Shown one piece after another: positions 12,001 through 35,068 of a stretch of 35,068 bases of DNA (position 1 is the stretch's first letter; every line of letters starts with the position of its first letter). The notes beneath the pieces are model-generated. The model made no database searches, was not told where the DNA came from, and saw only the letters and a list, made by a program, of their open reading frames with translations. Where the stretch lies: assembly GCA_043827405.1 (NCBI GenBank), contig JBDRPD010000042.1, forward strand, positions 1 through 35,068, given 5' to 3'. The position numbers and the translations under genes were made by a program. The stretch is from Elusimicrobiota bacterium. Its GTDB lineage: Bacteria; Elusimicrobiota; Elusimicrobia; UBA1565.

Positions 12001-15000
12001 TCGTCGATAGTCCGGTTGACTTGAAGGGAATCGCCCAGGTGACGGTGGCCCTGACGGGCGGCCCGACATACTATTGGCATGCGCGTTCGTACAGCGCACT
12101 CGGCATCCCCTCGGCATATACTGCGCCGAACAACTTTATCATCGATCTGTTGCCGCCGGCGGTCAACGCCTTCCAACATATCAACTCGGCCGCGGGCGTG
12201 ATCACCGAGTCGCAGATAAACAACCTGGCCGCCGGCGTGACGGTGCAGCTAACGCTGCAGGACGCGACCGCCGGTTTGTTTATGAGCACCGCGACGGCGG
12301 TCGGCAACCATCAGACTCCCGCGGGCGGCTTCAGCGTTCTCTATTCGACCAATGCGGGCGCGAGCTGGCGTTCGCTGCGGCCGGCGGCCATGAGCCGCGA
12401 CGGCTCGCAGGAGGCTGTGCGCTCGTTGGCGGTATACAACGGCCAGCTCTATGCCGGTCAGGGTCTGGGGGCGGGTGACGGCGATGTCTTTGTAAACAAC
12501 GGGATTTCCTGGTCCGCCTCCCCCGCCGTGCCGAACCCGTCCTCTGTCGAGGTTATCCACGCCATGGCCGTATACAATGGGAACCTCTATGCCGGGCAGG
12601 GCGCCGACGCCGGCGACGGCGATGTGCTCAAGTACGACGGCTCGTGGAGCGTGAGCTATGACGGCGCGGCCGGCGATATCCGGGCGCTGGCGGTTTACAA
12701 CGGCAAGCTCTACGCCGGTCAGGGCGGTGCGGCGGCGGAAGACGGGGACATCCATGTCTATAACGGCGCAACCTGGAGCCTGTCGACGCCCACCGCCAGC
12801 TCCGAGATCCGCGCCTTGGCGGTCTACAAAGGCCAGCTCTATGCCGGCGGCGGTACTACCGGTATTCGTATATTCGATGGCTGGAGATGGACGGAAAATC
12901 CCGGCGCCACCACGGATCCCATCCTGGCCTTCGCCGTCTACAACGGCCGGCTCTATGCCGGCACCACCGGCGGCGACGTGCGCGTCTTCAACGGCAGCGC
13001 CTGGACCGCCAGCACCTCGACCGGCGCGGGATATGAGATATTGTCGCTGGCGGCCCATGGCGGCCGGCTCTATGCCGGCCGGGGCGGCGCCGCCGCGGGC
13101 GACGGCGATATTTACGCTTTCGACGGACAGAAGTGGACCTTGGCCTATGACGGCGCGGCCGGGGCTGTTTACGCCCTGGCGGCCTTTAACGGGAAGCTCT
13201 TCGCCGGCGAAGGCTCGGCGGCGGGGACCGACGGCGATATCCGGTCCTTCGCGCATTTGGGCGAACCGGCCATTACCGGTATCGAAGGCAGCGTTGATCC
13301 GGAGAATTTTACCGCCTATCTTGATCTGGTGAACTCAACCAATACCACGCAGTGCGGCGGCAGCGGGCCCTGCGGCGCCACCAACCAGGTGATCTTCAAT
13401 GCCGCCGACCGCGCCGGCAACGTCCTGTCGGCCGGTCCATACGCGGTGCTTGTGGATACCTCGGTGCCGCTGCCCATGATCGACACCTTGACGCCGCTGA
13501 CGACCCGGTCCATCTTTGTGACCGCCAATTCCAGTGACAACCTCTCCGGCATTAATGACTATGTGTTTGAGGCCTCCACGTCTTCGGATTTTTCGCCGCC
13601 GATTACGGATTCGGGCTTCGTGGCCATCGACTCCCATACCTTTACCGACCTCCTGGTTGCGACCACCTACTACTTCCGCGTCACCCTGCGCGACAACCTG
13701 CTCAATGTGTCGACGCCGTCGGTGGTCTCCGCCACCTCGACCTTCGGTACCGTATTCTACAGCAGCGCCGCGATTACGCCGGCCAGCGCGCTGCAGAGCG
13801 CGGTGGTGCCGATGCTGCGCCTGTATCTCAACACCCCCACCGGCACCTCGCGGCTGGATACGGTGCGGGTGACGCTGACGGGCAGCGCGGGGGATGCCGA
13901 CGTCAGCGAGGCGCAGATCTACCGCGACGTTGACGGCGACGGCGTCTTTGACGACGGCGCCGAGACCTTCCTGGCCGGCGCGGTGTTCACCAACGGTGTG
14001 AGCACCGTGGTGCTGGCCGGCAACGCGGAGGCGCTTGATGTCAAGGTCAGCACGGTATTTATCGCTTTCCAGATGAGCGACTTCGCCACGGTCAATAATA
14101 CCGTGGGTATGGACCTGGTGCTCCCCGGCGACATCGGCCTCAAGTTCCCGGACAATGCCGAGGGGCCGTTTCCGACCTCGGTGCCGCCCATCAGTATTAC
14201 CGACGGCGCCAACCGGGTGACCTTTAATGAAACCGGCTCTTATGCCGCGCAGAGCGCCGCGCCGTCGCAGAATGACGTGCTGACGCTGCGGCTCAACGCC
14301 ACCACCCCGCTGGGCTCCAGCATTATCGACGAGATTGTGGTGCATCTGACCGGCGACATGCCGGCCAATAAAATTACGCGGGTGGTGGTGTGGCGCGACG
14401 CCAACGGCAACAGCGTTTTTGAGCCCGCAACCGACGACAACCTGACCGATAATATTCAAACCTTCACGCAGAAGGGCACGGGGCTTGCCGTCTCCACGGT
14501 TACGCTGTCAGCGCCCCAGTCGTCGCGCACCGTGGTCCAGGGCGGCGGCGAAGTGTTCTTTGTGTCGGTGGATATCCCGTCGACGGCCGGGTCGGAGCAG
14601 GGCAAGGGCTTCCAGCTCGTGATCTCCACGCCGGCCGACATCCATCTCAGTAACCCGGCCGACTCGGCGGCTCTGACCGCCTATCCGATCACCGCCAGCA
14701 CGGTGACCATTCAGATCAACAACACCGTGACGGTATCGACCAGGAGCTGGGCGCCGGCCACGGTCGTTCAGGGCGGCCGCTTTGTGATTTTTGGCGCCAC
14801 CTTGACCGCGGACGCGGGGACGGCGGGAATCGATCAATTCACAGTGAACCTTAACGGCCTGGCCGCGGACTCGGATATCGAGGCTGTTGAGCTCTATAAG
14901 GACAAGACGGCGGACGGCAAGCCTTTCGTCAGCCCGGCGGCGGAAACCTTTCTGGGCTCTGCGACTTTCTCGGGCGGCGTCGCCGTGATCGGAATCTGGG

Positions 15001-18000
15001 ATCCCATCCTGGCCGGTCCGTTGGAGGTGGCCCAAAGCACGACCGTCGTGTTCCTTGCCTATAAGGTCGCGGCGGGTGCCAGTGCGGGGCGTACCGCGGG
15101 CGCCGTGATTACATCGGCCGGCGACATCTCGACGGTGGACCCCACTAGCTCGGTCCAGGGAGTGTTCCCGATTATCTCGCCGCTAACCCAGATCGTGGAG
15201 ACCATCAACACGCTCAAGATCCCGTCGTCGCCTCCGGTCAACCCGCCCAACGTCGATCAGGGAGAAAAGGACGTGAAGATGCTCAGCTTTGAACTGGTTT
15301 CCGACAACAACAATATTACCTGGTCGGGGCTGACCATCGAGCGCCTCGGCGACACCGTCGACGCCGACGTGAAAGCCATTCGGCTGTGGCGTGATACGGA
15401 CAAAAACGGCAACATCGATCCGGCCGTCGACGTGCAGCTCAACGGCACCATCAGCACCGATACCTTTACCGGCGGCGTCGCCACCATCGCCCTCGACGTT
15501 TCGACCGAGATCGCCCGCACGACCATGACCTTCATTATCACGTTGGATATCAGCCCCGACGCGGTGCCCGGCAGCTCCATCGCGGTCCGCATCGACACCA
15601 CCACGGCCTTCAGCATCAACGCGCCCAATATCGTCTCCAGCATGACGGCGGCCTTCCCCATAGACACCCCCAGCTATGTGCCGATTCAGCAGTTCGCTAA
15701 TACGATTACGGTCACGACCACCAGCATCGTGCCGTCGGGAGGCGCCCTGCCCGGGACGCAGAATGTGGGCATTATGCATCTCGTTCCCAATACCGACGTA
15801 TCAACGGCGAAATGGCTGGCGCTGCAGGTCGAGCGGCTGGGGAGTTCGGTCAACTCGGATATCGCCGCGGTGAAGATCTATTACGATAAAACGGGGCTGG
15901 GAACATGGAACTCATCGAACCTCGGCGCCTATGACCTGATCACCCCATCGACCCATACTTTCGGCGACCTGGGTCTTAACTCGGTGCGCGTGAGCATCAG
16001 CACGCCGCCGACCTTGGTGCGCTCCGACGTCAGCCAGAAGGGCTTTTTCCTCGTCGTCGATATCGCGGCGGGGGCGACCCCGGATAATACGATTATTGTG
16101 CGGGCGCAGAATGACAGCTGGTTCGAGGCCGACGGGCTCAACGAGTTCAGCAGCAGCACGGCGAAGTTTACGTCGCAGACCCTGACCATCGCCGCCCCGC
16201 CCCAGCAGATGTTCGTGGTGGCGAGCGATACGGCGCCCGCCTCTGTTACCCAGGGCGACACCTTTGTGCCGATGATGGAGCTCGAGCTGTGGATGACGAA
16301 CTATTCGGCGAAGTGGACCCGGCTCACGGTTCAGCGGGCGGGCACGGGCTCCGATGACGATATTTCGGCGGTGCGCATCTTCAACGACAGCGGCACGGTC
16401 GCCGGGGAGTGGGACGCTTCGGATACCGAGCTCGGCGCCGCGGTATTCAGCGGCGGCCAGGCGGTGCTGACCTTCGCCACGCAGACGATCCGTACCAGCA
16501 CCGCGATCTATCACCTGACCTACGATATCGATCCGGCGGCGCAGGGGACGAGCGTCGGCCTGGTGCTGGACAACTCGGGCCAGTTCGATCCGCTGTCCTC
16601 GCCGCATGTGACCTCGAACTACGGCTTCCCCTTCCAGTCCTCCGACAGCGCGATCGCGCGCACGGTTACGGGCATGAACGTCACCGGGTTTCCGGCGGCG
16701 CCGGGCTCGCTGCTCCAGGGCGCGACCAATCAGCCGATCATCGGCCTGATCCTGGATACCGACAATCTGGCGCTGCTCTTTTCTGCCGTGACGGTGAGGA
16801 GCTCGGGCACCGCGGCCGACAGCGATATCACGGCCGTCAACCTGTGGTATGACGCCGACCAGAACGGCAGCTTCAGCGCCGCGCTCGACGAGCAGCTTAC
16901 CGCCGGCTCCGAACGCTTCGTGGGCGGCGAGGCGACCTTGACCATCCTGCCTGGCAGCGAGAAGACGATTGATACGCTGGCAAAGACCTTCTTCGTGACC
17001 GTTGACGTGGCTGTTTTCGCCGACGACACCAAGAAATTCGGCGCGGTGGTGCTTTCGAGCGACGCCTTCACCGTCTCCAGCCCGAACTTCGTCGTCGACG
17101 CGAACTTCCCGGCGCCGCCCTTCCCGCCGAACTCGCCGCTGAAGAAGGTCGCCGAGGTGCTGACCGTTAGACCTGTCGACACGCTGCCCGCGGGCGGCGT
17201 CAATCAGAGCACGGCGGTGGCGGCGGTGATGCTCGCGGCCTTCGCCTCGCGCAATTCGATCGAGTGGACCAAGCTCTCCATTGAGCAGCGCGGGACACTC
17301 GACGTCTCATCGATTTCGGCCGTCAGCCTCTACCGCGCCGACGCCTCCGGCAACTTCAGCTCCGGCGCAGTCTTGATCGCGAGCACGGGGGCGTTCACCG
17401 GCAAGGTGGCCGAGCTGGTTATGACGTCCTCGGAGACGGTGACGACGTCGACGGGGACCTACTATGTGGTGCTCGCGATCGCCGCCGGCGCTCCCGTCGA
17501 TGGCACCGTCGCCCTGCGCATCGCCAGCGCGGGCTCGCTGACGGTGACGAAAAACGATACGGTTTCGTCCGCCAATATCACGCCGTTTGACACCGGCGCG
17601 ACCAAGATCCTCGACGTGAAGACGCCGACGCAGCCCCAGGTGACGCTCACCGACGGCTCCTTCAGCAGCAATTTCGAGCATCTGGAGTTTAACTGGAACT
17701 CCGAGGTCGGCAGCGGGGGCATTATCGGCGCCGAGTACGCGATTGGGACCTCGACCGGCGCCAACGACATCTACCCCGCCGATCCCGATCCCAATGTATT
17801 CGCGCCGCTTTCCGCCGGCGATACCACGAAGAAGGCCAGCGGTTTCGGCATGGTGTCCGGAACGACCTATTACGTATCCGTGCGGGTGCAGTCCATGGTC
17901 TCCGGCTCACCGACGGTATTTACCAGTCCGGTGGGGGTATCGGCGCCCATTCTGGTGGACTTTACCGTGCCGACCGCGCCCGCCCCCAATATCAGCGTCT

Positions 18001-18605
18001 CCGGGGGAACGCTGCTGTTTACCTGGAGCGGCATCGTCGCCGGCCCATCGGGGATCAAGGGCTATCTTATTGAGTACCGCACCGGCGAGGTGCCGGTGTG
18101 GAAGAATGTGAAGACCGGAGGCGGCGCCATTGCCCAATCGGTGAGCTCCATTCGCCCGGCGGTCGCCGTGGCGGACAAAGATGTCGTTACCGGCAACTCC
18201 TACCAGGCTACGGGTCTACCCAAGGGCACGCTGTACTTCCGGATGCGGGCCGTGACCGGCGCGGGGCAGGCGGGGCCGGCCAGCGATCCAAAGAAGCTGC
18301 TCGTCGGCGTGACGGGAACCGAGAGCATCAGCCAGGTCAGCAGTTATCCGAATCCCTTCGATTCCCGAAAGGAAAAAGCGACCATCCATTATTCGCTGGG
18401 CACCACGAGCGAAGTGTCCATTGAGATTTACAGTGTCTACGGACGGTTGGTGCGTTCGCTTAGCGGGACCGGCAATCCGGGCTCCAACGAGGTGGTCTGG
18501 GACGGCACCGACGACGGCGGCGCCAAGGTATCTATGGGCATCTACCTCGCCGTTGTCGAGGTCGGCGGCGAAAAGACCATCCTCAAGATCGGCGTCAAGC
18601 ATTAG
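3..18605 (+). CDS. Giant multidomain surface/adhesin-like protein (FG-GAP/VCBS propellers, FN3/Ig-like domains, LamG/ConA-like domains, beta-propellers, C-terminal FlgD-Ig/T9SS-like sorting domain); 5'-truncated
   Basis: The 6155-aa ORF 138..18605 stays open upstream to position 3 (GPGAPHPDGG...DDPGGGGGGGIVAVNV). There is no signal peptide or RBS at ATG138, so the true start lies outside the window. Motifs: (A/S)WGDYDNDGDLD FG-GAP repeats, LamG signatures (TVEAWV...WHHVA...YIDG...GQIDEVRI), YYWRVRA FN3/Ig motifs and a terminal YPNPF...WDG...GIYL...KIGVKH. Confidence 0.9.
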   Translation, partial: GPGAPHPDGGAAGADADGGDDPGGGGGGGIVAVNVTGSISTTLSAMTADGGASGGGTALAGAVGALPAGPGLVDDIAVGVIVSTGLGASSMTATLTWTAPAAGAAGGENAFYDLRYDTNPILTQADYDNAPNSVLFATAVVASAAESAQIEFLDAAATHYFAVSMIDNFGLKGGVSNAATALAYVTSVIGGINSRGVAWGDYDGDGDLDFIVAKNGDEYIGKNNGDGTFSPFTISGSGMNSLAVAWCDVDRDGDLDAVLANAGNESILRNDGGDNFTTVTIADTADTSNGIACGDYDNDGDMDLVVGNTTLEDYVATNNGIGGFSTAPLTGTAVNTKSVAWADYDNDGDLDFVAAANLTNDYIAKNNGDGTFSTFTFTAYVANSEGIAWGDYDGDGKLDIAIANNGNTAVYHNDGGDAFTEIQIADSGGNSLGIAWADYDNDNDLDLLVANSLTEQYILSNSDGAGTFVKVTLTGFPGTTYGVSWGDYDDDGDLDAVVGNDSATEDDWVYRNDLSVSHSAPSVPAGLTQYFDEFGAASSSGVLRLEWNEAADTETTDTDLLEYIVRVGTSAENGEIMPYPARFSQGGYGGAGFPYSTRGSTVTGKRGLRLVLPKETTVYWAVGAVDAEFTRSSTSTEQVAWLAAPAAISDLAAVYTSTGLGASSMTVTLTWTAPGANGGVGALAGGAFDLRYSTVGPIMDLMNYSTVSYQVMLSTSVSPGEPQSHTVEFLNAAVTHYFAITTIDEYGVRSALSNPTTALSYMVALVSPYQDSGDIAWGDYNRDGRLDLAAANDNKRAALYTQNADGSFTADSAGTETKISFALAWGDYDNDGDLDLAMANSSAGDEYVVKNNNGEFEWVSLDGSLGDSLGIAWGDYDNDGDLDLAVANDGQDNYIASNTAGAFSTFTVTSDGAGSTGVSWGDFNNDGYLDFAFANYGGDVVVGVNNGDGTISTAAIASSGGNSYGLAWGDYDADGYLDLAVVNDNENVYLLHNNGAGGFAAKSEIPNTDVAGRGIVWGDANNDGKLDLAIAVETDDEVVLFGDGAGGFTKITLVGTGHSSTAVSWGDADGDGDLDLAVSNDTESEFVLRNDIIAAHTPPTPPASGFSARYEEFSEFSSSGTLTLMWGHGADAETTDVDLLEYFVQVGTTVAGSSTTMRIPEAFGASGTGFLYSTRGSTDPARRGIKLRMQAETTAYWAVVPMDAELMRGATSAEQTTPVVAPRRISDLAVSVTISTAIGASSMTARLSWTAPGDDGGIGAIMAGEYDIRYSSHAAILTNADFINAAASFRIAVATSVNPDAPQTYDIPFLDRATTHYFAITTKDGLGVRSALSNAATAFSYIQEVVGTADASYNAAWADIDGDGDLDFVVANYAALKVKAVNNGDGTFTQSAIAGTAGSNTRGLAWGDMDNDGDLDAVLANDSDQAQTILVNDGNGNFSVYTLADTNGYSQGVAVADFDNDGDLDFVTSESAQDYVVLHTNLGGLYFSSATVAGGGTGSRGVTAGDMDNDGDMDIVVANNTGGANTMVLKNNGDGTFSETELTDTGGYSNGIALGDYDGDGDLDIAVANAGSGDSGEENYILRNNGGLSFTKITLVNDVQVSHGALWGDANNDGRLDAAFVNELGEDAAVWLSQGGDVFARHALYGTGGSTHSLSWGDFDDDGDLDLLLVSGPDTVGYIVRNDTSAANTAPSAPSGLTATFSEYSLFADSGVLTLKWSDATDTQTSTAALRYYVRIGTTTTGSSTTLKIPPRFGYDGYSGGGLLYSTRLSGLERGFKIEMQKETTVYWSLITEDGALARSGDSGEQEVDLSIPRAVTDLTAAIDNSVQSSSVAWVALSFTAPGENGNSGNLQAGALFDVRWSTVGPISSDAEYEGTTFKSIVSAAGAVQGSNSAWASVAVSASSKTYYFAMTTLDQFGARSVLSNSSNGVFPKIMRERVYDLAETSILQDQTTGFLRIDVWTDGVGQIVKWEKLRVKKIGSLPDGAIKLVGLWNDLGSVAKTFDDSDSKRTANAVFTSSEVVLTFSTPQSIDQTTSTYYLGAQFDPAFLPVDGASIALVLVGDAFVVTQGGVGAVDFPALELDGVDDGAIAPYHATLNVAPDPITVEAWVRTTDGGADRVIVTRGRTSPVGGYRLWLNGDGCGSGVPTLYIGVDKLCANAQDASVRIDDGYWHHVAAAFDNSAGKTIYIDGVTVAVGNTDGVLDLSDASEGGLGIGRSSATLGGLGNPLAGQIDEVRISKISSRYARDIEFIPARRFADGDINSVALYHFDGELDPALQFKDRSNAGSNTLTVVGAVGGYGRSTATAVTDAADVFVASGTDVAPATMFENQKDIAMLRLMLWTENDHVTLDEFFITPLGDGSAVENISLYLDDGDEVFDKFADTNLISGKEFTNSTATFNLAGAGKAQLINTSTKSYFIVWDVAGGIDLDVNLGLEIAATTNFTLSGSTDAGLNLGYPIRSGTPMIVGAEVFVTPEAATGTWINTSSIVFRTNGAFNLGNVLEYRYVWNQNPVTAVAWGDSPWTVGKATATAGTDANDWYFHVRAFASGPTAGTQEDFGPFYVDTALPTGAGFLSYNSTAGALAETQFSDLAADVTAEYQVEDALSGLNLDGPAPVAPDSGTISLWHFDEQSGITWYDAAGPNRNDLSIVAGGMTRTHGRFGSALLFDGVSYLRAVPLKIELPIGNVEFSFESWVFPLSTDTTSGITSWGTPSQPLRIALDSGQLAINFGGGYVARGPVLSTGVWQHIGLTYDGSTCRYYVDGAEVGSNGCGARETGLGELYIGGTDAGELFQGALDEMRILDVALSAGEIYNDYSRGDPYFVSYSTNAGSSWQFIASTDTAAAAHIELSGAHGAAGPETLKVYGLDLVLSTSAQTTNKGTNQVRFHAADRAANVFVAGPFAVLVDTNAPVAVSTPAVPVNGAFVSPGGTDPDAHPDFHWIGPDPYLVSGMAGEFFLEVVQDDDTFAAPLIRISTPAEVSDYGLDRTFGSYLSTFTLTENSTYYWRVRARSGLGIYSPWSQTSSFVTDTTTPTAADFRVFNSTAGDFLESQNIDLLTGVTVQITLNDAARAGLGHFAEYPSTTDVLGYWSFDEVGGANPIDSSGNGNNGTLSCGQLNCSSATYAAGRFGAGISCNGDQRQGVLFPNADFNFPASSTFTLEAWIFPEKIDSNRTLIAMGHPGYPAGRNYVFGTSKVGDITALQFVANTEGKTSSGRSILRDRWQHVAVVVESSRMLFYINGAFDSLEFIPGGVTGGGTMPLSICTGLNEAGAFSSGYYGMIDEVRVVGHALDAEQIAADYTATAAGRFAVEYSTTAGQDWNIVGATYAVPGYPYLRISGDAGSMGPQTLEVRLLDLTHSTSSATGSQGTNQVRFHVPDRAGNTLVTSPYAVIVDTVAAASVATPLFPADGAYSGSQPNFRWAGPSTTTVVQMGTGSVYLLEVDDNPDFFTQEIYISTPVLTQSTSVANVSGLYVSTYTLTHNTTYYWRVRSRNELGLLSPPLTVFTFVTDLSSPVSSGFISYNSTYGAVAEGVVNDLSAGVTVELLLQDSVLAAESGLSTQPVAGARTFGVIYTTQTGQNPVFWTDGGWGPSFSDPSGTAVEALALYGGALYAGTRGGASAPVYKYAGGGWTQAGAALTGSAVKCFAEFNGKLYAGVDGNGRIYSWNGGSWTQEFDTGKSQTNALAVYNGRLYAATGGSGEIWAYDAGTGNWFRVFAGYVESMSRWIDPIYALEVYNGSLFAAGQGGIIVSSGTTFTVSNKGNVGWLSLEVYNNDLYAGNNSGGEIFKFDGAAWGALPDKNTPEASVAALGMHDGRLYAGANGASPGRIYVKDGRDWLLVRQLATGDETRAFQHYNGRLYAGTKLSANGVVYVSTPLATSLTGDEGATSVQTLRAEGLTFTQSTIASDCLGSRQNPAVSCAATNQVRFTAMDRAGNVAAAGPYAVLVDALLSQPTAAYPAAGEFIMTDVPALLWQESPVQPKHEIEIDDDVEMTSPEYTLIVDSPVDLKGIAQVTVALTGGPTYYWHARSYSALGIPSAYTAPNNFIIDLLPPAVNAFQHINSAAGVITESQINNLAAGVTVQLTLQDATAGLFMSTATAVGNHQTPAGGFSVLYSTNAGASWRSLRPAAMSRDGSQEAVRSLAVYNGQLYAGQGLGAGDGDVFVNNGISWSASPAVPNPSSVEVIHAMAVYNGNLYAGQGADAGDGDVLKYDGSWSVSYDGAAGDIRALAVYNGKLYAGQGGAAAEDGDIHVYNGATWSLSTPTASSEIRALAVYKGQLYAGGGTTGIRIFDGWRWTENPGATTDPILAFAVYNGRLYAGTTGGDVRVFNGSAWTASTSTGAGYEILSLAAHGGRLYAGRGGAAAGDGDIYAFDGQKWTLAYDGAAGAVYALAAFNGKLFAGEGSAAGTDGDIRSFAHLGEPAITGIEGSVDPENFTAYLDLVNSTNTTQCGGSGPCGATNQVIFNAADRAGNVLSAGPYAVLVDTSVPLPMIDTLTPLTTRSIFVTANSSDNLSGINDYVFEASTSSDFSPPITDSGFVAIDSHTFTDLLVATTYYFRVTLRDNLLNVSTPSVVSATSTFGTVFYSSAAITPASALQSAVVPMLRLYLNTPTGTSRLDTVRVTLTGSAGDADVSEAQIYRDVDGDGVFDDGAETFLAGAVFTNGVSTVVLAGNAEALDVKVSTVFIAFQMSDFATVNNTVGMDLVLPGDIGLKFPDNAEGPFPTSVPPISITDGANRVTFNETGSYAAQSAAPSQNDVLTLRLNATTPLGSSIIDEIVVHLTGDMPANKITRVVVWRDANGNSVFEPATDDNLTDNIQTFTQKGTGLAVSTVTLSAPQSSRTVVQGGGEVFFVSVDIPSTAGSEQGKGFQLVISTPADIHLSNPADSAALTAYPITASTVTIQINNTVTVSTRSWAPATVVQGGRFVIFGATLTADAGTAGIDQFTVNLNGLAADSDIEAVELYKDKTADGKPFVSPAAETFLGSATFSGGVAVIGIWDPILAGPLEVAQSTTVVFLAYKVAAGASAGRTAGAVITSAGDISTVDPTSSVQGVFPIISPLTQIVETINTLKIPSSPPVNPPNVDQGEKDVKMLSFELVSDNNNITWSGLTIERLGDTVDADVKAIRLWRDTDKNGNIDPAVDVQLNGTISTDTFTGGVATIALDVSTEIARTTMTFIITLDISPDAVPGSSIAVRIDTTTAFSINAPNIVSSMTAAFPIDTPSYVPIQQFANTITVTTTSIVPSGGALPGTQNVGIMHLVPNTDVSTAKWLALQVERLGSSVNSDIAAVKIYYDKTGLGTWNSSNLGAYDLITPSTHTFGDLGLNSVRVSISTPPTLVRSDVSQKGFFLVVDIAAGATPDNTIIVRAQNDSWFEADGLNEFSSSTAKFTSQTLTIAAPPQQMFVVASDTAPASVTQGDTFVPMMELELWMTNYSAKWTRLTVQRAGTGSDDDISAVRIFNDSGTVAGEWDASDTELGAAVFSGGQAVLTFATQTIRTSTAIYHLTYDIDPAAQGTSVGLVLDNSGQFDPLSSPHVTSNYGFPFQSSDSAIARTVTGMNVTGFPAAPGSLLQGATNQPIIGLILDTDNLALLFSAVTVRSSGTAADSDITAVNLWYDADQNGSFSAALDEQLTAGSERFVGGEATLTILPGSEKTIDTLAKTFFVTVDVAVFADDTKKFGAVVLSSDAFTVSSPNFVVDANFPAPPFPPNSPLKKVAEVLTVRPVDTLPAGGVNQSTAVAAVMLAAFASRNSIEWTKLSIEQRGTLDVSSISAVSLYRADASGNFSSGAVLIASTGAFTGKVAELVMTSSETVTTSTGTYYVVLAIAAGAPVDGTVALRIASAGSLTVTKNDTVSSANITPFDTGATKILDVKTPTQPQVTLTDGSFSSNFEHLEFNWNSEVGSGGIIGAEYAIGTSTGANDIYPADPDPNVFAPLSAGDTTKKASGFGMVSGTTYYVSVRVQSMVSGSPTVFTSPVGVSAPILVDFTVPTAPAPNISVSGGTLLFTWSGIVAGPSGIKGYLIEYRTGEVPVWKNVKTGGGAIAQSVSSIRPAVAVADKDVVTGNSYQATGLPKGTLYFRMRAVTGAGQAGPASDPKKLLVGVTGTESISQVSSYPNPFDSRKEKATIHYSLGTTSEVSIEIYSVYGRLVRSLSGTGNPGSNEVVWDGTDDGGAKVSMGIYLAVVEVGGEKTILKIGVKH
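219..5790 (+). repeat. Three tandem ~575-590 aa units (FN3-like + FG-GAP propeller + FN3-like) plus a fourth FN3-like start, period ~1.7-1.8 kb
   Basis: Unit-start motif (V/I)xD(I/L)...SSM...L(T/S)WTAP recurs at ~219, ~1944, ~3675 and, more diverged, ~5448. Each of the first three is followed by about seven WGD(Y/F)DxDGDLD blades and a P..P..L...SG.L.L.W..A.D.(E/Q)T...Y.V.(V/I)GT...ETT.YW block. Confidence 0.85.
6230..9900 (+). other. Three LamG/concanavalin A-like lectin domains within the giant protein (~6230-6890, ~7870-8450, ~9260-9900)
   Basis: Each has (T/S)xE(A/S)W(V/I), W(H/Q)H(V/I), Y(I/V)(D/N)G and G.(I/L)DE(V/M)R(I/V) motifs, with an associated (Y/W)(H/S)FD motif. Confidence 0.8.
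10780..13260 (+). repeat. Two beta-propeller repeat arrays with ~40-47 aa blades (consensus ALAVYNGKLYAG...I..(Y/F)DG..W), ~10780-11620 and ~12390-13260
   Basis: Repeated ALALYGGALYAG, ALAVYNGRLYAA, SLAVYNGQLYAG, AMAVYNGNLYAG, ALAVYNGKLYAG, AFAVYNGRLYAG and ALAAFNGKLFAG in the translation. Confidence 0.8.
13750..17610 (+). repeat. Eight tandem ~155-165 aa beta-rich repeats with a DxDGxGxF-type loop (two more copies at ~5800 and ~6950)
   Basis: Recurrent pattern P..V.QG...ML.L.L...W..L.V.R.G...D.DI.AV.L(Y/W).D.(D/N)G.G.F...D..L...F.GG.A.L. Copies start near 13750, 14220, 14730, 15210, 15710, 16210, 16680 and 17160. Confidence 0.75.
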
Positions 18606-18694
18606 CGCCGTCTCCCGACCGATAAGCCTTATATTTTCACGTTAATTTTATGAGAAACTTCGGGATTTCTTCGTGTTTCCCCGCGCGCCGCCGC

Positions 18695-18700
18695 TACACT
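18695..18700 (+). promoter_or_regulatory. Possible sigma70-type -10 element (TACACT) for the sorting-domain/PorV/motor cluster
   Basis: TANNNT hexamer downstream of an AT-rich intergenic patch (18621-18672) and 5 nt before GTG18706. No clear -35 and no SD. Confidence 0.3.
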
Positions 18701-18705
18701 ATAGC

Positions 18706-19080
18706 GTGCGACGCCCATTGCTCATCATGGTCCTGGTCGTTCTGGTGGCTGTCCCGTGCGCTGTTTTCTCGACGGGAACCGGGCAGCTGACCCAGGTTTC
18801 CGCCTATCCCAATCCTTTCGACTCCCGCCAGGAAAAAACCAAGATCGCATATACCCTTTCCGAAGACCGGGGCGTCGCGGTGGATATTTACAGCGTCTAC
18901 GGCGCGCGGGTCTGGAATTGTTCTATCCCCCCGGCGGTACTCGGCGGCCGCCGGGGGGCGAATTATTTAACCTGGGACGGCCGCGGCAGCCGGGGCCGTA
19001 AAGTCGCCAAGGGCGTCTATCTCGCCGTCGTCCGGGCCGGCTCGGCCCGGACGGTCGTCAAGATCGGAGTGATCCATTGA
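18706..19080 (+). CDS. Small exported protein consisting of a signal peptide plus one FlgD-Ig/T9SS type-A-like sorting domain
   Basis: Signal-peptide-like MRRPLLIMVLVVLVAVPCAVFS (start GTG18706; alternatives GTG18673 and ATG18727), then QVSAYPNPFDSRQEK...DIYSVYG...WDG...GVYLAVV...KIGVIH, a clear paralog of the giant protein's C-terminus. Confidence 0.8.
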   Translation: MRRPLLIMVLVVLVAVPCAVFSTGTGQLTQVSAYPNPFDSRQEKTKIAYTLSEDRGVAVDIYSVYGARVWNCSIPPAVLGGRRGANYLTWDGRGSRGRKVAKGVYLAVVRAGSARTVVKIGVIH

Positions 19081-20645
19081 AGAGGCTGATCGCGCTGCTC
19101 CTTCTTCTCCCGTCCGCGGCGCTGGCCGGAGTCGCCGGCCGGCCGGGCGAGCGGAACACGGTCGGCGCCGGCGCTCGCGCGCGCGCGCTGGGCAGCGCGC
19201 ACACCGCGGTGGTCCAGGATGCGACGGCGCTCTACTATAACCCGGCGGGGCTGGGGCTTCTCCCCGGCCGTGAGGTGTCGGTTATGCGCGCGCAGCTCTT
19301 CGGCGACGCCACCTACGACTACGTCGCCTATGCGCAGAACAAGCGCAAGCGCGCCGGCGGCTGGGGCATTGAGCTTATTCGCCTGGGCGTTCAGGGGGCG
19401 GAGGGCCGCGATGAGTTCAATAATGCGAGCGGCGGCTTCGGCTATTCGGAAATGTCGCTCGGTTTCGCGCATGGCTACCGCGGCGTTTTCGATCCGAACC
19501 TGTCGGTCGGCTTCAAGCTGAAGATGCTGCAGCGCAGCATGGACGGCGCCTCCGACCGGATGCTGGGGATGGATCTCGGGGCGCAGTACGGGCCGCTGTT
19601 GGGCGACAAGCTCCTGCTCGGCTTGGTCGCGACCAATGCCGTGGGGATGACGCAGGGCGAGACCGACGATAAGCTCGGGCGCGTCGTCCGCGTCGGCGCC
19701 GCCTACAAGGTTATCGGCCCGCTGTCGATCGCGGCGGATATGTCATCGGAGGGGGAGTTCCGCATGGGTACCGAATATGCGTTCGGGATCACCTCCGTCC
19801 GGGTGGGTTTTGAGGACAAAAACCTGTCGTTCGGCGGCGGCCTGATGTTCCGCCGCAAATACATGTTTGATCTGGCGCTGGTGACCCACCCCACGCTCGG
19901 CATGTCGCAGCGCATGTCGATCGGCTATAAGTTCGGCAGCGCCGTTCCGCGGCCGGGGGAGGAGCGGACCCAGCGCCAGACGCGCTACGCCCAGGAATAC
20001 CTCAACAATGCCAAGACGGAGCTCAAGAAGAGCAACTATCTGCGGGCATCGAGGGATCTTGATACCGCGCTGGGCATCGACCCGCGCATCGAGAACGGGG
20101 AATGGACCGCGCAGGCCGTGCGGCTGCGCCGGCTGGTTAAGGAACTCGATCTCGCCGGGCACGAGGAGGACGTCGCCGAGCTGGCGCAGGAGAGCAAGGC
20201 GGCCAAGATCGCGCAGAGCGCGATCAGCGCGTATCTCGACGGCGAGGACGACCGGGCGATGCTTTATGCGCACGTGGCGCGCGGCTCGGCTCCGCGCAGC
20301 GCCGCCTACCGGCGCCTGCTGGAGGGGATGGCCAAGATCACGGACCGCAAGATCGAGCGCGACCAGATTATGCCCCCGGAACGGCTGGTGGCGCTCAAGA
20401 TGAAGCAGGGGATGGATGCGGTCTATGCCCGCCGCTTCGCGATCGCGACCGAGGTTTTGCGCGAGGCGCTGTGGCTTGATCCGACCAACGCGCTCGCCTA
20501 TACCCGGCTCGGTTCCGCGCTCTACGCCATGGGCGACCGGGTGCGGGCCCGCCAGGCCTGGCTGAAGGCGCTGGAGCTTGATCCCGCCAACGAGAACCTG
20601 CGCCGCTTCATGGCGCAGCAGCAGATCGAGACGGGCGGGCAATAA
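19077..20645 (+). CDS. PorV/PorQ-family (FadL-like) outer-membrane beta-barrel protein with C-terminal TPR domain
   Basis: Signal peptide MKRLIALLLLLPSAALA. PorV/FadL N-terminal signature GARARALGSAHTAVVQDATALYYNPAGL. Alternating beta-strands ending MSIGYKF (~19935), then TPR-like helices (ALWLDPTNALAYTRLGSALYAMGD...ALELDPAN). The TTG start overlaps the upstream TGA. Confidence 0.85.
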   Translation: MKRLIALLLLLPSAALAGVAGRPGERNTVGAGARARALGSAHTAVVQDATALYYNPAGLGLLPGREVSVMRAQLFGDATYDYVAYAQNKRKRAGGWGIELIRLGVQGAEGRDEFNNASGGFGYSEMSLGFAHGYRGVFDPNLSVGFKLKMLQRSMDGASDRMLGMDLGAQYGPLLGDKLLLGLVATNAVGMTQGETDDKLGRVVRVGAAYKVIGPLSIAADMSSEGEFRMGTEYAFGITSVRVGFEDKNLSFGGGLMFRRKYMFDLALVTHPTLGMSQRMSIGYKFGSAVPRPGEERTQRQTRYAQEYLNNAKTELKKSNYLRASRDLDTALGIDPRIENGEWTAQAVRLRRLVKELDLAGHEEDVAELAQESKAAKIAQSAISAYLDGEDDRAMLYAHVARGSAPRSAAYRRLLEGMAKITDRKIERDQIMPPERLVALKMKQGMDAVYARRFAIATEVLREALWLDPTNALAYTRLGSALYAMGDRVRARQAWLKALELDPANENLRRFMAQQQIETGGQ

Positions 20646-20690
20646 AATGGCAACGCGAATAGAGGAAAATATCGGTGCCGGGAGTGAGCG

Positions 20691-23174
20691 ATGGAGATCG
20701 TAATCTTCGTCCTCATTCCCGTGGTGTTTCTGGTGCTGGCGTCCAGCATGCTGGTGGTCAGCCAGGTGTCGAGCCTGTTTCAGACGACCCGGTATTCCAA
20801 GAAACGCCGGCTCGACCGCGAGAACATCGAGCGCAACCTGCTGAAGCTGGCGGTCGAGAAGGCGCGGGTGGCGCGGCGCAGCAAGCAGTTGGAGGGGTTG
20901 TCCAAGCGGCTGCAGGCAACCAATGTGGACCTGGATCGGCTTAACAGCATGAAAACAAAATTTCTTTCCATGGCGGTTCATGATATGCGCACCCCGCTGG
21001 CCTCGATTAAGGGCTTCGGCGAGATGCTCAGCCGCCAGCAGCTCGCGGGTACGCAGAAGAAATACGTCGACTACATCGTCCGCGGTACCGACCAGATCAA
21101 CCGCTTGATGGCCGATCTCACCGACCTCGCGGTTATTGAAGCCGGCAAGCTGAAGATGGAAAAGGTGCCATTCCAGCTTTCGGACCTGCTCCAGGACATC
21201 GTGCCGCCGATCCAGGTGATCGCGGAAAAAGCCGGCGTGGAATTTATACCGCCGGAAGATCCGAAGGAAGTAACCATTATCGGCGACAAGTTCCGTCTGG
21301 GCCAGGCGCTCAATAACTTTCTTAACAACGCCTGCAAGTTTACCCCCGCGGGAGGCCGGTTCGAGCTGATCATCAAGGCGATCGGCCGCACCGTCACCTT
21401 CGGCGTCAAGGATACGGGCCCCGGCATCGACCGCTCGGAGGTCGAGTTTGTTTTCGAGAAGTTCTACCAGTCGAAGTACACCAAAAAGGCGGACAAGAAG
21501 AAGGGCTGGGGGCTGGGGCTGTCGATCACCCAGGAGATAGTGCGCGCGCACTTCGGCGATATCGGCGTGGACTCGCCGGGCCTCGGAAAGGGGTCGACGT
21601 TCTGGTGCAGTATCCCGCTCAAGCCGCCGCGGCAGGCGCGGCTGCCGGTTGCGGTCGCGGCGCTGCTGCTGGCCCTGGGACTCGCGGCGGCGCCGCTGCG
21701 GGCGGCGGACCTCATGCCGCTTGAGGAGAAGGCGCGCTATGAGGCGGCGCTCGAGCAGAAGGCGGAGTCGGTGCTACTGCGTATTCTGGGGCCGAACCGG
21801 GCGCGGGTGGTGGTGAACGCGACTTTGGACTTTACCCGGACCGAGCGCTTCGACGTCAAAAGCGGCGGTGCGGAAGACCAAAACGCGGCGTCCTTGTACC
21901 TGTGGCAGAGCGTCGGCGCCGAGGGAGCGGGCCGCTCGCAGCTGCTGCCCGGCATCCCGTCGCCGGAGACGGTGCCGGCATTGACCGAATCCAAGTCCTA
22001 TGAGCGCTCCAACACCTTCCCCACGTCGTTTATCAAGAAGCTGGAGGTCACTATTATTTATGACGACAGCGTTCCCCTGGAAAGGATCGACGCTATCAAT
22101 AAAATTATTCCCGACGTCCTCAATATGGAAACAGGCCCGCCGCGCGAGGATATGCTGAGCTTCGCCCGGTCTCCTTTCCAGCCGGCCTGGAAAACGATCT
22201 GGTACACGCCGGAGTCGGCCAGCCTGCTGTTTAAGTACGGCATTATCAGCCTCATGACCCTGATCACCCTGCTGGTGGTGGCGGCCTGCTTCCTTAAGCT
22301 GGCCGATGCGATGGACTCCATGGCGCAGTCCCAGTCCAACCAGCTGAAGATGGATATCGGCGATGAGGGCGAGCCGATCGAGACCGACGCGGAAGGCGCC
22401 GAAAAGAAGGATGGGGAGGGCGATGGGCCGCCGCCGGAGAGTCAGATCATAATCAACGTCCACCTGAGCCAGGTCGACACCCTGCTTGAGATCCTGTCCC
22501 GCCAGGACCCGGAGAATATCGCGCTGATCGTCGCGCATCTCAAGCCGGAGGTCAAGAAGGCCTTCCTGCGGCGCCTGCCTCCCGAGATTTACAGCCGCGT
22601 GCTGATGAACCTCGGCAAGATCAAATTCATGGAGCCGGATACGGTCGCTACCGTAAAGGACGAGCTCGAGCGCCGCTTGGAAAGCGCGGTGGGAGGCCAC
22701 GGCAAGCTGCTGGAGATGATCGAGGATTCGGATTTGCGGTCCAAGAAAGAGCTGCTCCATCTGCTGGAGCAGCGTGAGCCGGAGCTGGCGAAGATCGTCC
22801 GCTCGCGGATCCTGCTGTTTGAGGATCTATTGAACCTCCTGCCTAAGGAGTGGTCGATCGTTCTTGGTTCGGTATCGCTCGAGGACTGGGGCGCCGCGCT
22901 CTACGACAGCGACGACGTGATGCGCGAGGCGGTGCAGGCGCAGATGCTGCCGAAGACCTGGAGCATTCTGTCGCAGATGATGGACGTCGCCAAATCAACC
23001 GCCGCCGCCGGCGACCAGGCGCGCGAGCGCATCGTGGAGACGGTGGCCCGGCTGGCCGCCGAGGCCCGCATCGGCAATCCCGGACTTCGCAAGGCGGCGC
23101 AAGCCGATGCGCTGGACGGCGTGGCGCCGCTTTTAGAGGAAGCGCTGGGGGAGAGTTCGGTCGAGACGGGATAA
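20691..23174 (+). CDS. Membrane fusion protein: sensor histidine kinase (HisKA + HATPase_c) + FliF C-terminal ring-like periplasmic domain + FliG middle/C-terminal-like domain
   Basis: GGAG RBS. N-terminal TM, H-box SMAVHDMRTPL (H97), N-box NFLNNACKFT, G1 DTGPGI, F-box FEKFYQ, G2 GWGLGLSI. Hydrophobic segment ~21640-21705. FliF-C-like LEQKAESVLLRILGPNRARVVVNATLDF...IKKLEVTIIYD...REDMLSFARSPF. TM at ~22220-22300. FliG-like QDPENIALIVAHL...VGG...EPELAKIVRSRILLFEDL. Confidence 0.8.
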   Translation: MEIVIFVLIPVVFLVLASSMLVVSQVSSLFQTTRYSKKRRLDRENIERNLLKLAVEKARVARRSKQLEGLSKRLQATNVDLDRLNSMKTKFLSMAVHDMRTPLASIKGFGEMLSRQQLAGTQKKYVDYIVRGTDQINRLMADLTDLAVIEAGKLKMEKVPFQLSDLLQDIVPPIQVIAEKAGVEFIPPEDPKEVTIIGDKFRLGQALNNFLNNACKFTPAGGRFELIIKAIGRTVTFGVKDTGPGIDRSEVEFVFEKFYQSKYTKKADKKKGWGLGLSITQEIVRAHFGDIGVDSPGLGKGSTFWCSIPLKPPRQARLPVAVAALLLALGLAAAPLRAADLMPLEEKARYEAALEQKAESVLLRILGPNRARVVVNATLDFTRTERFDVKSGGAEDQNAASLYLWQSVGAEGAGRSQLLPGIPSPETVPALTESKSYERSNTFPTSFIKKLEVTIIYDDSVPLERIDAINKIIPDVLNMETGPPREDMLSFARSPFQPAWKTIWYTPESASLLFKYGIISLMTLITLLVVAACFLKLADAMDSMAQSQSNQLKMDIGDEGEPIETDAEGAEKKDGEGDGPPPESQIIINVHLSQVDTLLEILSRQDPENIALIVAHLKPEVKKAFLRRLPPEIYSRVLMNLGKIKFMEPDTVATVKDELERRLESAVGGHGKLLEMIEDSDLRSKKELLHLLEQREPELAKIVRSRILLFEDLLNLLPKEWSIVLGSVSLEDWGAALYDSDDVMREAVQAQMLPKTWSILSQMMDVAKSTAAAGDQARERIVETVARLAAEARIGNPGLRKAAQADALDGVAPLLEEALGESSVETG

Positions 23175-23194
23175 GACAACCGGAGTAAGACAAC

Positions 23195-24364
23195 ATGGCT
23201 GACAAAGTAGATAGTCTTCTCGCCAGCTTGCGGGGCGAGGAGCCGGAACCCGAACTGGAACCACCCGTTGACGCGCCGCCCCCCATGGCGGAGGCCGCGG
23301 CGCAGGCGCCGGTGGCGGATCTGGGGCCCATTGAAGAGAAGATAGCGGCGCTGGAGGCGCAGATCGCGGCGCTGCAGGCGCCGCCGCCCCTGGAGGAGCC
23401 GCCGCCCTTAGAGGAGATGCCGCCGCCCCTGGAGGAGCCGCCGCCGGAACCGCCGGAGCCGCCGACCCAGCTGACGATGTTCCTGCAGACGCGCATGGAG
23501 CTCCTGGAGCGGAAGCTTGAGATGTCTCAGCGCGACGCGGTACGTGCCAATATGATCCTGCGCGAGCGTGAGGATGCCCAGCGCCGTGCGCAGAAGGAGG
23601 TGGAGGACTTGTTTCGCCGCATCCGCGAACAGCAGCGCTCCGCCAGCTTCGATCAGGAGCTGCGCCGGAACTATACCGCTTCGCAGGCGCGCGTTGAGGA
23701 GCTGCAGCAGCGCTTGGCGCTGGCGGAGCTGCGCATGGTGCCGGCGGAGGATGTATTGCGCAGCTTCGAGGGAGAGGAAGGGCGCGCTGAGCTTGAACGG
23801 CGTCTGCGCATACAGCTGGCGAAGGCGGAAGCGGGTACGGCTATAGGCAAAATCGAGCCGTCCCGTCCCGCCGAAGGCGGGACGACCCCGGCCGACAAAC
23901 CCCTGCCTCCTACCGAAAAAATGATCGCGGCGCCCATCGGCGGCGACATTGAATCCATTTCGGTGCTGCTGGGGCGCATCGCGGACTTGGAAGCCCGCCT
24001 GGAGGAATCCGCCGAAGAGCGGGAGAAGGAGCGGCAGGAGCGAAAGCGCTGGGAAGGGAATATGCTGGAGTCGCTCAAAAGCACGCGCCGTCAGTGGCAG
24101 AAGACCGGCGGTCCGGAGCTCCTGGTGGAGGCCGCGTTGGAGACTATGGTAGATTCTGTTAAGGAGCGGGATCGCCTACAGTTGGATATGGGCAAGCTGG
24201 TTATGATGCTCCAGGATGAGCCGCCGGACTCAAGGCGAACGCCGGCACTGCGGGCGCGGCTCGCCGAATATCAGAACAAGATGCGGGAGCTGCAAGAGAA
24301 GCTCGACAAGCAAACGGCGCTTATTGAGGCCTGGGTGAAGCGCAGCAAGGAAGCGGGGCAATGA
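23195..24364 (+). CDS. Hypothetical cytoplasmic coiled-coil protein with Pro/Glu-rich N-terminus
   Basis: 389-aa ORF with GGAG RBS at 23182-23185 and high-GC3 codons. Heptad-rich helical segments (IEEKIAALEAQIAALQ, LGRIADLEARLEE, LAEYQNKMRELQEKL). No TM or signal peptide. Its stop is 1 nt before motA. Confidence 0.75.
   Translation: MADKVDSLLASLRGEEPEPELEPPVDAPPPMAEAAAQAPVADLGPIEEKIAALEAQIAALQAPPPLEEPPPLEEMPPPLEEPPPEPPEPPTQLTMFLQTRMELLERKLEMSQRDAVRANMILREREDAQRRAQKEVEDLFRRIREQQRSASFDQELRRNYTASQARVEELQQRLALAELRMVPAEDVLRSFEGEEGRAELERRLRIQLAKAEAGTAIGKIEPSRPAEGGTTPADKPLPPTEKMIAAPIGGDIESISVLLGRIADLEARLEESAEEREKERQERKRWEGNMLESLKSTRRQWQKTGGPELLVEAALETMVDSVKERDRLQLDMGKLVMMLQDEPPDSRRTPALRARLAEYQNKMRELQEKLDKQTALIEAWVKRSKEAGQ
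23381..23464 (+). repeat. In-frame tandem repeat encoding PPPLEE x3 followed by PPPEPPEPP
   Basis: ccgccgcccctggaggag / ccgccgcccttagaggag / (atg)ccgccgcccctggaggag read directly from the sequence. Confidence 0.8.
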
Positions 24365-24365
24365 T

Positions 24366-25103
24366 ATGGATCCATCGACACTAATCGGCGCCGTCGGCTG
24401 CGTCACGCTTATTGTTCTCGGCGCGGCGACCGGGGAGCTCTCCAAGGTCTTTCTCAACTGGCACGGCATCATTATTGTTTTCGGCGGAACGATAAGCGCG
24501 TTGTTTATCAATACTCCGCTGATCTATATTCGTGAGCTGATGAGCATGTCGCTGTCGCTGTGGCGCCGGGGCAGCCATGAGAAGGTGGAGACCCTCATCC
24601 CGGAGATCACGCGCATCGCCGAGCAGGTGCAGACCGGCGGCCTGGGGGTGCTGCGCAATATCGACACCAAGGCGGCCGGAGGCTACCTGTCGTCCGCCGC
24701 TACCACCGCCCTGGAATACAATAATCCCGAGTTTGTACGCACCGTTCTGGAGAATGAGGTCAATGCCCAGGTCGACCGGGCCAACGAGGTCATCAATGTC
24801 GTTCGGACCGCGGGCGTCGTTGCGCCCATGTTCGGACTGATCGGGACCTTGGTCGGAATTATCAAGGTCTTGGCCAATATCGCCGACCCCAAAACCTCGA
24901 TGGCCTATATGGCGATCGCGATCACGTCGGCGTTTTACGGCATTCTGCTGGCCAATGTCTTCTGTATCCCGGTCGCGGGCAAGCTCCGGCTGCGTTTATG
25001 GGAGGAGCTCAAGATCAAGGCGATTGTGATCGAGGGCGTTATCGGCATGATGAAAGGGACCGTTCCGCTGGTCCTGGAGCGCAAGCTGCATTCCTTCAAG
25101 TAG
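24366..25103 (+). CDS. motA: MotA/PomA-family stator (ion-motor) A subunit
   Basis: 245 aa with 4 TMs. N-terminal MDPSTLIG, IVFGGT, APMFGLIGTLVGII and MAIAITSAFYGILLANVFCIPVAGKL all match PomA/MotA consensus motifs. Confidence 0.85.
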   Translation: MDPSTLIGAVGCVTLIVLGAATGELSKVFLNWHGIIIVFGGTISALFINTPLIYIRELMSMSLSLWRRGSHEKVETLIPEITRIAEQVQTGGLGVLRNIDTKAAGGYLSSAATTALEYNNPEFVRTVLENEVNAQVDRANEVINVVRTAGVVAPMFGLIGTLVGIIKVLANIADPKTSMAYMAIAITSAFYGILLANVFCIPVAGKLRLRLWEELKIKAIVIEGVIGMMKGTVPLVLERKLHSFK

Positions 25104-25105
25104 AC

Positions 25106-25804
25106 ATGGCTATCTATAAGTTCCGCAAGGACGAACTCGACAACGCGCTCAACAAGAACGCGATTTGGGCGATCGTCTACGGGGACATGATGAGCTATTT
25201 AATGATCTTGTTCCTGATGATGCTGTCCTACAGCATCAGCAAGGACATCGATCGCAAGTCGAAGACGTTCGAGGAAGCGCTCAATGAAGTGCAGGTGGTT
25301 TTCGGCGGCAAGATAGATAAAAAAGTGGCGGATCGCATCCAGGCGCGCGACAAAGAGTTCGTCTATATCGAGACCATGAAGCAGGGCGCGGAGGACGGGA
25401 AGTTCGGCGATGAGGCCTCGGTCATCGTCAGCGAGCTTAGCATTCAGCTGAACCTCGGCTCCGGAATTCTATTTGATTCGGGCGAGGCCACGCTTAAGCA
25501 GGATGCCCTGCCCAAGCTGGAAGTCGTCGCCAAGAACATGCTTAACGTTAAGAACGAGATCCGCGTCGAGGGGCATACCGATTCCGTGCCGATCGGCAAG
25601 CGCATGGGCTTCAAGTCCAACTGGGAGCTGTCGATGGCGCGCGCCTATTCCGTTATTCGGGCTCTGGAGGGCTTCGGCGTCGATCCCAAAAGGCTGTCCG
25701 GGGTCGGCTACGGCGAGCACCGCCCCGCCGGCGACAACAGCACCGCGGCGGGCCGGTCGCAGAACCGGCGTATCAGCATCGACCTGCTGCGCATCGGGCA
25801 GTAG
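25106..25804 (+). CDS. motB: MotB/PomB-family stator B subunit with OmpA-like peptidoglycan-binding domain
   Basis: Probable start ATG25106, 2 nt after the motA stop. WAIVYGDMMSYLMILF TM with the conserved Asp (D27). OmpA-C motifs ILFDSGEATL, VEGHTDS, SNWELSMARA, GYGEHRP and NRRISI. Confidence 0.88.
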   Translation: MAIYKFRKDELDNALNKNAIWAIVYGDMMSYLMILFLMMLSYSISKDIDRKSKTFEEALNEVQVVFGGKIDKKVADRIQARDKEFVYIETMKQGAEDGKFGDEASVIVSELSIQLNLGSGILFDSGEATLKQDALPKLEVVAKNMLNVKNEIRVEGHTDSVPIGKRMGFKSNWELSMARAYSVIRALEGFGVDPKRLSGVGYGEHRPAGDNSTAAGRSQNRRISIDLLRIGQ

Positions 25805-31803: not shown

Positions 31804-31804
31804 C

Positions 31805-33670: not shown

Positions 33671-35068
<1,398 letters not shown>

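Follow-up and report, generated by a model that had tools for sequence, protein, structure and literature searches.

The flagellar motor and the Bacteroidota type IX secretion system (T9SS) are the closest described relatives of the locus reported here. In flagella, FliG takes up the stator torque through its M and C domains, and to our knowledge FliG is known as a torque receiver of the flagellum only. In Bacteroidota and related groups, T9SS parts are known to occur together with GldLM motors. We analyzed the whole 35,068-nucleotide contig JBDRPD010000042.1 (C42; hereafter the window) of the Elusimicrobiota bacterium assembly GCA_043827405.1, a 4.33-Mb genome (G000) that is 97.97% complete and 0.48% contaminated. 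The window carries an operon with a one-chain FliF-FliG gene and motAB, preceded by genes for a giant protein with a C-terminal sorting domain (CTD) and for a PorV-like barrel with a TPR module (PorV-TPR). We give an even chance to the reading that this operon encodes a rotor and stator that serve as a dedicated ion-driven motor, moving the giant KIGVxH-tagged protein via PorV-TPR. We infer the motor function from gene context and homology. Its parts come from both the flagellum and the T9SS, but the system is neither the former nor a canonical version of the latter.

The locus shares with the flagellar motor core the FliF RBM3, beta-collar and second transmembrane helix (TM2), FliG M and C with their Gly linker, MotA, MotB with its plug Asp and OmpA-like domain, and FlbD at one paralogous locus. 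It differs in that FliF and FliG form one natural chain, a signal peptide takes the place of TM1, RBM1 and RBM2, and no FliG N domain was detected. In addition, FliM/N, the export gate, rod, hook, filament and chemotaxis (Che) core were not found in the genome, several paralogous rotor-stator sets exist per genome, and the charge pairs are altered. Engineered FliF-FliG fusions of Salmonella and Vibrio can build MS-rings and are reported to be functional in Salmonella (PMC11481574). Those fusions are full-length, laboratory-made and placed inside a flagellum, whereas the fusion here is natural, truncated and flagellum-free. The SpoIIIAG ring of the Bacillus sporulation channel shares an RBM3-type ring and beta-collar without RBM1/2, but has no FliG or stator and belongs to another cell context.

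The features shared with the Bacteroidota T9SS and gliding system are a SprA-like translocon, PorV-like barrels, CTDs, and cargo genes paired with their own carrier. Such pairing of a cargo gene with its own carrier is described for type B CTD/SprF pairs (PMC12618676). Unlike in Bacteroidota, the carrier has a periplasmic TPR module and the linked motor is of the flagellar type, while GldL/M/N and PorU gave no matches here, the control genomes being unmatched too. The SprA-like protein is about 1,750-1,900 aa long and scores below the family cut-off, compared with 2,403 aa for Bacteroidota SprA.

Elusimicrobiota have been noted to carry many homologues of motAB, flbD and fliG while lacking structural flagellar genes, with gliding or twitching suggested and the role left open (bioRxiv 10.1101/2022.07.08.499144). 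In its accessible text, that preprint is silent on the FliF-FliG fusion, on the operon and on a link to PorV, CTD or SprA. FliG/MotA or PorV went unmentioned in the searched parts of 10.1101/765248, 10.1101/2023.11.21.568195, PMC12057145 and PMC11573180. No description of the operon or machine was found in the full texts searched, a scope that leaves outside most subscription papers and the bioRxiv supplements. The operon likely encodes a previously undescribed motor that moves giant surface proteins.

The operon and its paralogues

Six + strand genes lie 3' of the giant gene with intergenic gaps of -4 to 45 bases, so the co-directional, tightly spaced run reported in the initial annotation was found complete and in place. 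The giant cargo gene (3..18605, +) runs off the contig at its 5' end and encodes at least 6,200 aa with FG-GAP repeats, LamG domains and a CTD that ends in KIGVKH at 18605. It narrowly passes TIGR04183 (23.5 bits, cut-off 23) and matches FlgD_ig with 37 bits, and its C-terminal part is related to cargos at other motor loci. The first of the six genes encodes a stand-alone CTD (18706..19080, +; alternative starts 18673 or 18727) with a signal-peptide-like N-terminus and a KIGVIH end. This CTD is 49% identical to that of the giant and scores below the TIGR04183 cut-off. The end of its gene overlaps the TTG start (19077) of the PorV-TPR gene (19077..20645, +), which encodes a PorV-like outer-membrane barrel followed by a TPR module of about 200 aa (19998-20627) that is specific to motor loci.

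The HK-FliF-FliG fusion of 827 aa follows (20691..23174, +), identified by Pfam and profile matches. A Pro-rich, charged, coiled-coil-like protein of 389 aa (23195..24364, +) separates it from motA. This protein had no Pfam or NCBIfam match and no informative ESM Atlas match, and its orthologues were found only at two same-family loci. The motA gene (24366..25103, +) encodes a MotA/PomA-type stator subunit by Pfam and NCBIfam, with Pro173 and Pro222 kept. The motB product (25106..25804, +) has a plug with the ion-binding Asp in WAIVYGD and an OmpA-like peptidoglycan-binding domain. Promoter and terminator scans stayed at chance level, and a riboswitch search gave no match within the window.

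FliG_C occurs six times in the genome, as five full rotor fusions (C42, C49, C54, C68 and C52) and one 87-aa fragment. Four of the five full fusions adjoin motAB. C49 and C54 repeat the order of giant cargo, PorV-TPR, rotor, motA and motB, and at C68 the rotor, motA, two motB genes and a free TPR-module gene face a 7,851-aa cargo locus. A c-di-GMP-I riboswitch lies 5' of the C49 motor operon (L001:2821-2897), where an FlbD gene also precedes motA (L001:8950-9177); the window copy has no space for such a gene before motA. The paralogues of this genome fall in separate clades of both the rotor and MotA trees. The fragment, a stand-alone FliG C-terminal piece (L003, G000:C99:20211-20474), sits among transposase- and integrase-like genes. 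At G000:C23:19616-21972, PorV-TPR and a stand-alone CTD gene occur without an adjacent rotor, and the contig ends 470 bases later.

The rotor fusion protein

The initial annotation had called this gene an HK-FliF-FliG fusion, and the three-part composition was borne out with a refinement: the FliF part consists of RBM3, beta-collar and TM2 only, and the FliG part of M and C only. On the single protein, Pfam placed HisKA, HATPase_c, FliG_M and FliG_C above cut-off and missed FliF. A profile built from the periplasmic part together with 99 homologues (100 sequences) recovered FliF, matching Salmonella FliF 240-471 at E 3.4e-10 as well as other FliFs. The range of this match indicates that the rotor keeps RBM3, beta-collar and TM2. 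The YscJ_FliF_C family was matched by 80 of the 100 profile members at E<=0.1, in agreement with the ESM Atlas. The same profile also matched SpoIIIAG (E 6e-5).

The histidine kinase part (20691..21707, +) has a transmembrane segment, HisKA with an H-box and HATPase_c, lacks a sensor domain, and ends in an internal signal-peptide-like segment. The FliF part (21708..22304, +) is without TM1, RBM1 and RBM2. These missing parts of FliF house the flagellar export gate. Across 100 full homologue N-termini a signal peptide directly precedes RBM3, which means that TM1, RBM1 and RBM2 are gone. Of the periplasmic motifs in the FliF part, LPGxP of the collar loop is the most conserved; it is near-invariant, its Pro was present in 100/100 sequences, and it aligned to GVPGA in the collar segment of FliF. 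By our own comparison, LPGxP may be the counterpart of the rod-binding FliF loop. An acidic linker and FliG M and C complete the chain (22305..23174, +), with no FliG N domain detected by Pfam. FliG M and C are kept in every full-length fusion, and the equivalent of FliG Gly195, the Gly linker, in 105/105 rotor sequences.

Named fusion homologues, mostly labelled Elusimicrobiota, are about 46-63% identical over the FliF part. The kinase fusion was present in many named Elusimicrobiota homologues, and the kinase was a separate neighbouring gene at other loci. A frameshift artefact was rejected as the origin of the kinase fusion because it is conserved in so many homologues. At the kinase-rotor junction (window 21640-21710), an A-x-A-type site was kept in 26/28 such fusions. 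Since this cleavable-looking signal is so widely kept, kinase and rotor may separate after insertion, and the chain may be a polyprotein cut by signal peptidase into the two. The largest rotor class (53/105) has no fused kinase.

The TPR and FliF profiles were unrelated to each other, and a search aimed at short proteins consisting of RBM3 alone gave no scoring match. In the ESM Atlas, proteins of 219-242 aa that have the FliF C-terminal domain and no other form clusters; Fidelibacterota are among the few members with a label, and these proteins are a possible unfused version elsewhere.

Conservation of the neighbourhood in the phylum

We surveyed 251 Elusimicrobiota genomes, 152 of which come from two families. 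Rotor genomes numbered 85, that is, the 89 with FliG_C minus four whose only match sits in a frame of 348-356 aa. For the loci, 100 from 65 genomes were picked among 150 listed of 219 matches, with canonical-length FliG left out.

Rotor genes had PorV-TPR upstream within 4.5 kb in 73/102 cases, a TPR-module gene nearby in 93/102, motA within 6 kb in 66/102 and a CTD gene within 6 kb in 60/102. PorV-TPR and motA both stood alongside 39 of the 102. The PorV-FliF/G-motAB neighbourhood is thus conserved, and the loss of linkage in relatives that would speak against a joint machine was not seen. A chance neighbourhood was rejected, as the same gene order recurs in 65 related genomes.

At the genome level, the TPR module was found in 84/85 rotor genomes and 3/166 others, with at most 12 candidates scored per genome. 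Since the profile was drawn from loci linked to the rotor, it is the negatives that carry the information. The module was absent from the three genomes with a true flagellum only. The KIG tail followed the same division. In this genome it ended 3/5 CTDs before PorV-TPR and 0/18 before plain PorV, and in the loci of relatives 44/60 and 1/12, respectively. As a DNA pattern, KIGVIH-stop occurred in 54/85 rotor genomes and 2/166 others, and the reversed pattern, used as a control, in 7 genomes; the predicted co-occurrence of the rotor with KIGVxH-ending proteins therefore holds. Short CTD genes similar to the stand-alone CTD preceded PorV-TPR in 23/60 cases in relatives. All of these co-occurrence counts rest on kin, the relatives not being independent. 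The linkage of rotor, TPR module and KIG tail is real, conserved and specific.

Rotor and MotA distances were correlated (rho 0.77, 67 pairs), with 0/500 permutations as high. These data bear on a static ring in the role of a hub or scaffold, comparable to SpoIIIAG or the PorKN ring, in which a periplasmic RBM3 ring would dock carriers and MotAB would act through ion flow or local pulling without turning it. The match of the rotor profile to SpoIIIAG, an RBM3-only ring, and the many rotor genes without motA nearby are consistent with a hub. However, every full-length fusion retains the torque-receiving domains FliG M and C, and the rotor diversifies together with MotA. We consider a static hub decidedly unlikely.

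Beyond the survey, a scan of named genomes matched two Elusimicrobiota records and a metagenome scan two short contigs. A cluster look-up of ten distant homologues yielded a single, tentative organism label, the name of an archaeal bin, attached to a contig of 4.9 kb.

Absence of a flagellum

A complete flagellar gene set was looked for across the genome and not found, in keeping with the flagellum-free setting first proposed from the window. FlhA (FHIPEP) gave no match in the genome, while four control genomes were positive. Furthermore, 41 E. coli flagellar and chemotaxis proteins were run by phmmer against all genome ORFs, at single-sequence sensitivity. The only convincing flagellar matches were motA (4), motB and fliG. 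With these queries, FliM/FliN had no match at E 0.01 in the whole genome, flhB, fliP and fliQ had none, and fliR had one weak match (E 0.0013). Among rod, L/P ring, hook and filament genes, flgB-L, fliC, fliD and fliE were unmatched in the genome, except that the sole flgD match was a cargo CTD. The fliI and fliA matches are most likely ATPases and sigma factors, and cheR, tar and cheA had weak matches.

In the phylum, FlhA was present in 6/251 genomes, compared with 89 for FliG_C and 98 for the MotB plug. Three genomes carry a true flagellum only, and 3/85 rotor genomes also have FlhA (G064, G240 and G121), which indicates that the two systems can coexist. The FlhA genes of the six genomes and the 87-aa FliG fragment on C99 are what a decaying remnant of a lost flagellum, accidentally linked to export genes, might leave behind. 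On the other hand, the frames are intact, five paralogues exist, and gene order is conserved over 65 genomes. A new signal peptide replaces TM1-RBM2, and three genomes combine the rotor with a true flagellum. A flagellar remnant is largely refuted by this conservation, and we rejected it as scarcely credible.

T9SS-like parts and the range of the motor

A search for sprA, proposed as a check on the export link, showed that a SprA-like translocon is present in the genome. The gene on C17 encodes 1,909 aa with three partial TIGR04189 matches below cut-off. A single-sequence PDB search missed SprA, and a 21-sequence profile of the C17 homologues recovered it, matching F. johnsoniae SprA at E 4e-35. 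The genome has 27 PorV-like loci, 23 of which directly follow a CTD-bearing gene in a one-cargo-one-carrier pattern; only 3/27 precede a rotor gene. The window barrel alone stayed below the NCBIfam PorV cut-off (67.6 vs 90), while its family profile had F. johnsoniae PorV as its sole PDB match (E 3e-22). A FadL-type barrel was rejected, PorV being the only PDB match of that profile. GldL, GldM, GldN and the PorU sortase (peptidase C25) had no matches in the genome, and no control genome matched either.

The initial annotation suggested that the flagellar-type ring and stator may replace GldKLMN in energizing export, which in its widest form makes the motor the general energizer of T9SS-like export in the phylum. 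The SprA-like translocon, the many CTD/PorV pairs and the unmatched GldL/M/N and PorU, with controls unmatched as well, fit this view. However, the claim proved too broad. SprA-like genes occurred in 219/251 genomes, including 71/73 and 50/79 of two families, probably gut-associated judging from genome size and the literature, that carry FliG_C in 1/73 and 1/79. PorV was found in 64/64 genomes of a hand-picked set, whose rotor-less members had as many as 19 matches. The three ExbB/TolQ-type motors encoded in this genome are alternative energizers that could serve instead. The motor is not a general GldKLMN replacement, because lineages without it keep SprA-like and PorV genes. We rejected the motor as universal export energizer on this ground and rate a general role as very unlikely; the motor likely serves one carrier/cargo class, judging from the gene distribution. 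SprA-like and PorV genes persist without the rotor in families f4, f14 and f9. The persistence of T9SS-like export genes in lineages with neither motor raises the question of the energy source there.

Proposed mechanism

We propose, at slightly less than even chance, a new class of bacterial rotary machine, a minimal flagellar rotor-stator in which a T9SS-type carrier replaces the drive shaft, each of several motors in a cell turning or dragging its own giant surface protein. The giant cargo would use Sec to cross the inner membrane and the SprA-like barrel to cross the outer one, and would be held through its CTD on the PorV-TPR encoded next to its gene. In the inner membrane, RBM3 would build an S-ring/beta-collar ring with FliG M/C underneath, and MotA5B2, anchored to peptidoglycan, would push on FliG. 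RBM3 alone forms the S-ring and collar (PMC11739650). The LPGxP collar loop would bind the periplasmic TPR module in place of a rod; in flagella, loops of the FliF collar segment bind the rod (10.64898/2025.12.04.692373).

The rotor would then pull the loaded carrier off the translocon and move the adhesin on the surface, for attachment, retraction or gliding-like movement. In T9SS, energy is used to draw the complex of carrier and substrate out of SprA, and gliding adhesins travel on their carriers and are moved by a track (PMC10994853). Cargo-specific carriers set the final location (PMC12618676). By analogy, we propose that the rotor ring acts on the carrier. Each of the paralogous motors would have a cargo of its own, and the fused kinase would report or control the motor state.

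If true, this phylum-wide operon coupling a FliG-type rotor to T9SS parts would give the flagellar engine a second function and would explain why orphan motAB/fliG genes and giant proteins have been noted in Elusimicrobiota. It would also offer a naturally reduced system, lacking RBM2, FliG N and FliM/N, in which to test rotor requirements. As a flagellum-free engine of surface motility or capture, it would be the smallest natural flagellar-type motor, with three proteins and a carrier.

Torque residues and points weighed against a motor

Several residues expected of a working stator were retained. The ion-binding Asp of MotB was kept, and MotA Pro173 and Pro222 were kept in all aligned sequences. 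The largest rotor class (53/105) kept MotA Arg/Lys90 and FliG Glu288 (53/53), and lost Arg281.

Other results weigh against a motor that moves the giant protein. In the window copy, MotA Arg90 is Gln and Glu98 is Arg, and FliG has Lys/Gln/Met at 281/288/289, residues that do not fit the classic MotA R90/E98-FliG R281/D288/D289 charge pairing. FliG Arg281 was replaced in most classes (Gly in 75/105). No motA was found within 6 kb of 36/102 rotor genes (27/88 with a full 6-kb flank), and the C52 rotor copy has a TPR gene without motAB or PorV alongside. No track or shaft protein was recognized for the motor. Convincing CheA, CheW and MCP were not found in the genome, which weakens directed motility. 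The origin of the TPR profile and the kinship of the surveyed genomes count on the same side. As for the residues, the classic MotA-FliG charges are essential in E. coli and not in Vibrio (10.1101/2021.01.07.425829). The residue pattern neither proves nor excludes torque.

The altered charge pairs keep another explanation alive for the window copy, namely a load or contact sensor in which a largely static ring and stator report adhesin engagement to kinase and c-di-GMP circuits. The sensor-less kinase, which in this copy and many homologues forms one chain with the rotor and at other loci neighbours it, is consistent with such reporting, as are the riboswitch preceding the C49 paralogue and the missing chemotaxis core. 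By contrast, the largest class is without a fused kinase and keeps the MotA and FliG charges given above, FlbD is present in the C49 copy, and the signal in 26/28 fusions looks cleavable, so that kinase and rotor may part. We regard the sensor as unlikely, though worth serious weight, and retain the dedicated motor as the preferred reading.

The second motB of two-motB loci often has Asn for the ion-binding Asp (13/97 MotB sequences examined). Such loci include L002 (G000:C54:23356-24695), L113, L116-L118, L126, L128, L136-L140 and L143, among others. This arrangement suggests a built-in asymmetric stator, with one putatively active and one silent B subunit.

Neighbouring genes in the window

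A response regulator with a GGDEF-like domain (25819-26811, - strand) converges on motB and could partner the fused kinase. Farther downstream lies an F-type ATP synthase operon, in which an unknown ORF of 153 aa and an NAD-dependent epimerase split atpA/atpG (window 31342-32737). A PilZ-domain gene stands between atpG and atpD (window 33671-34033).

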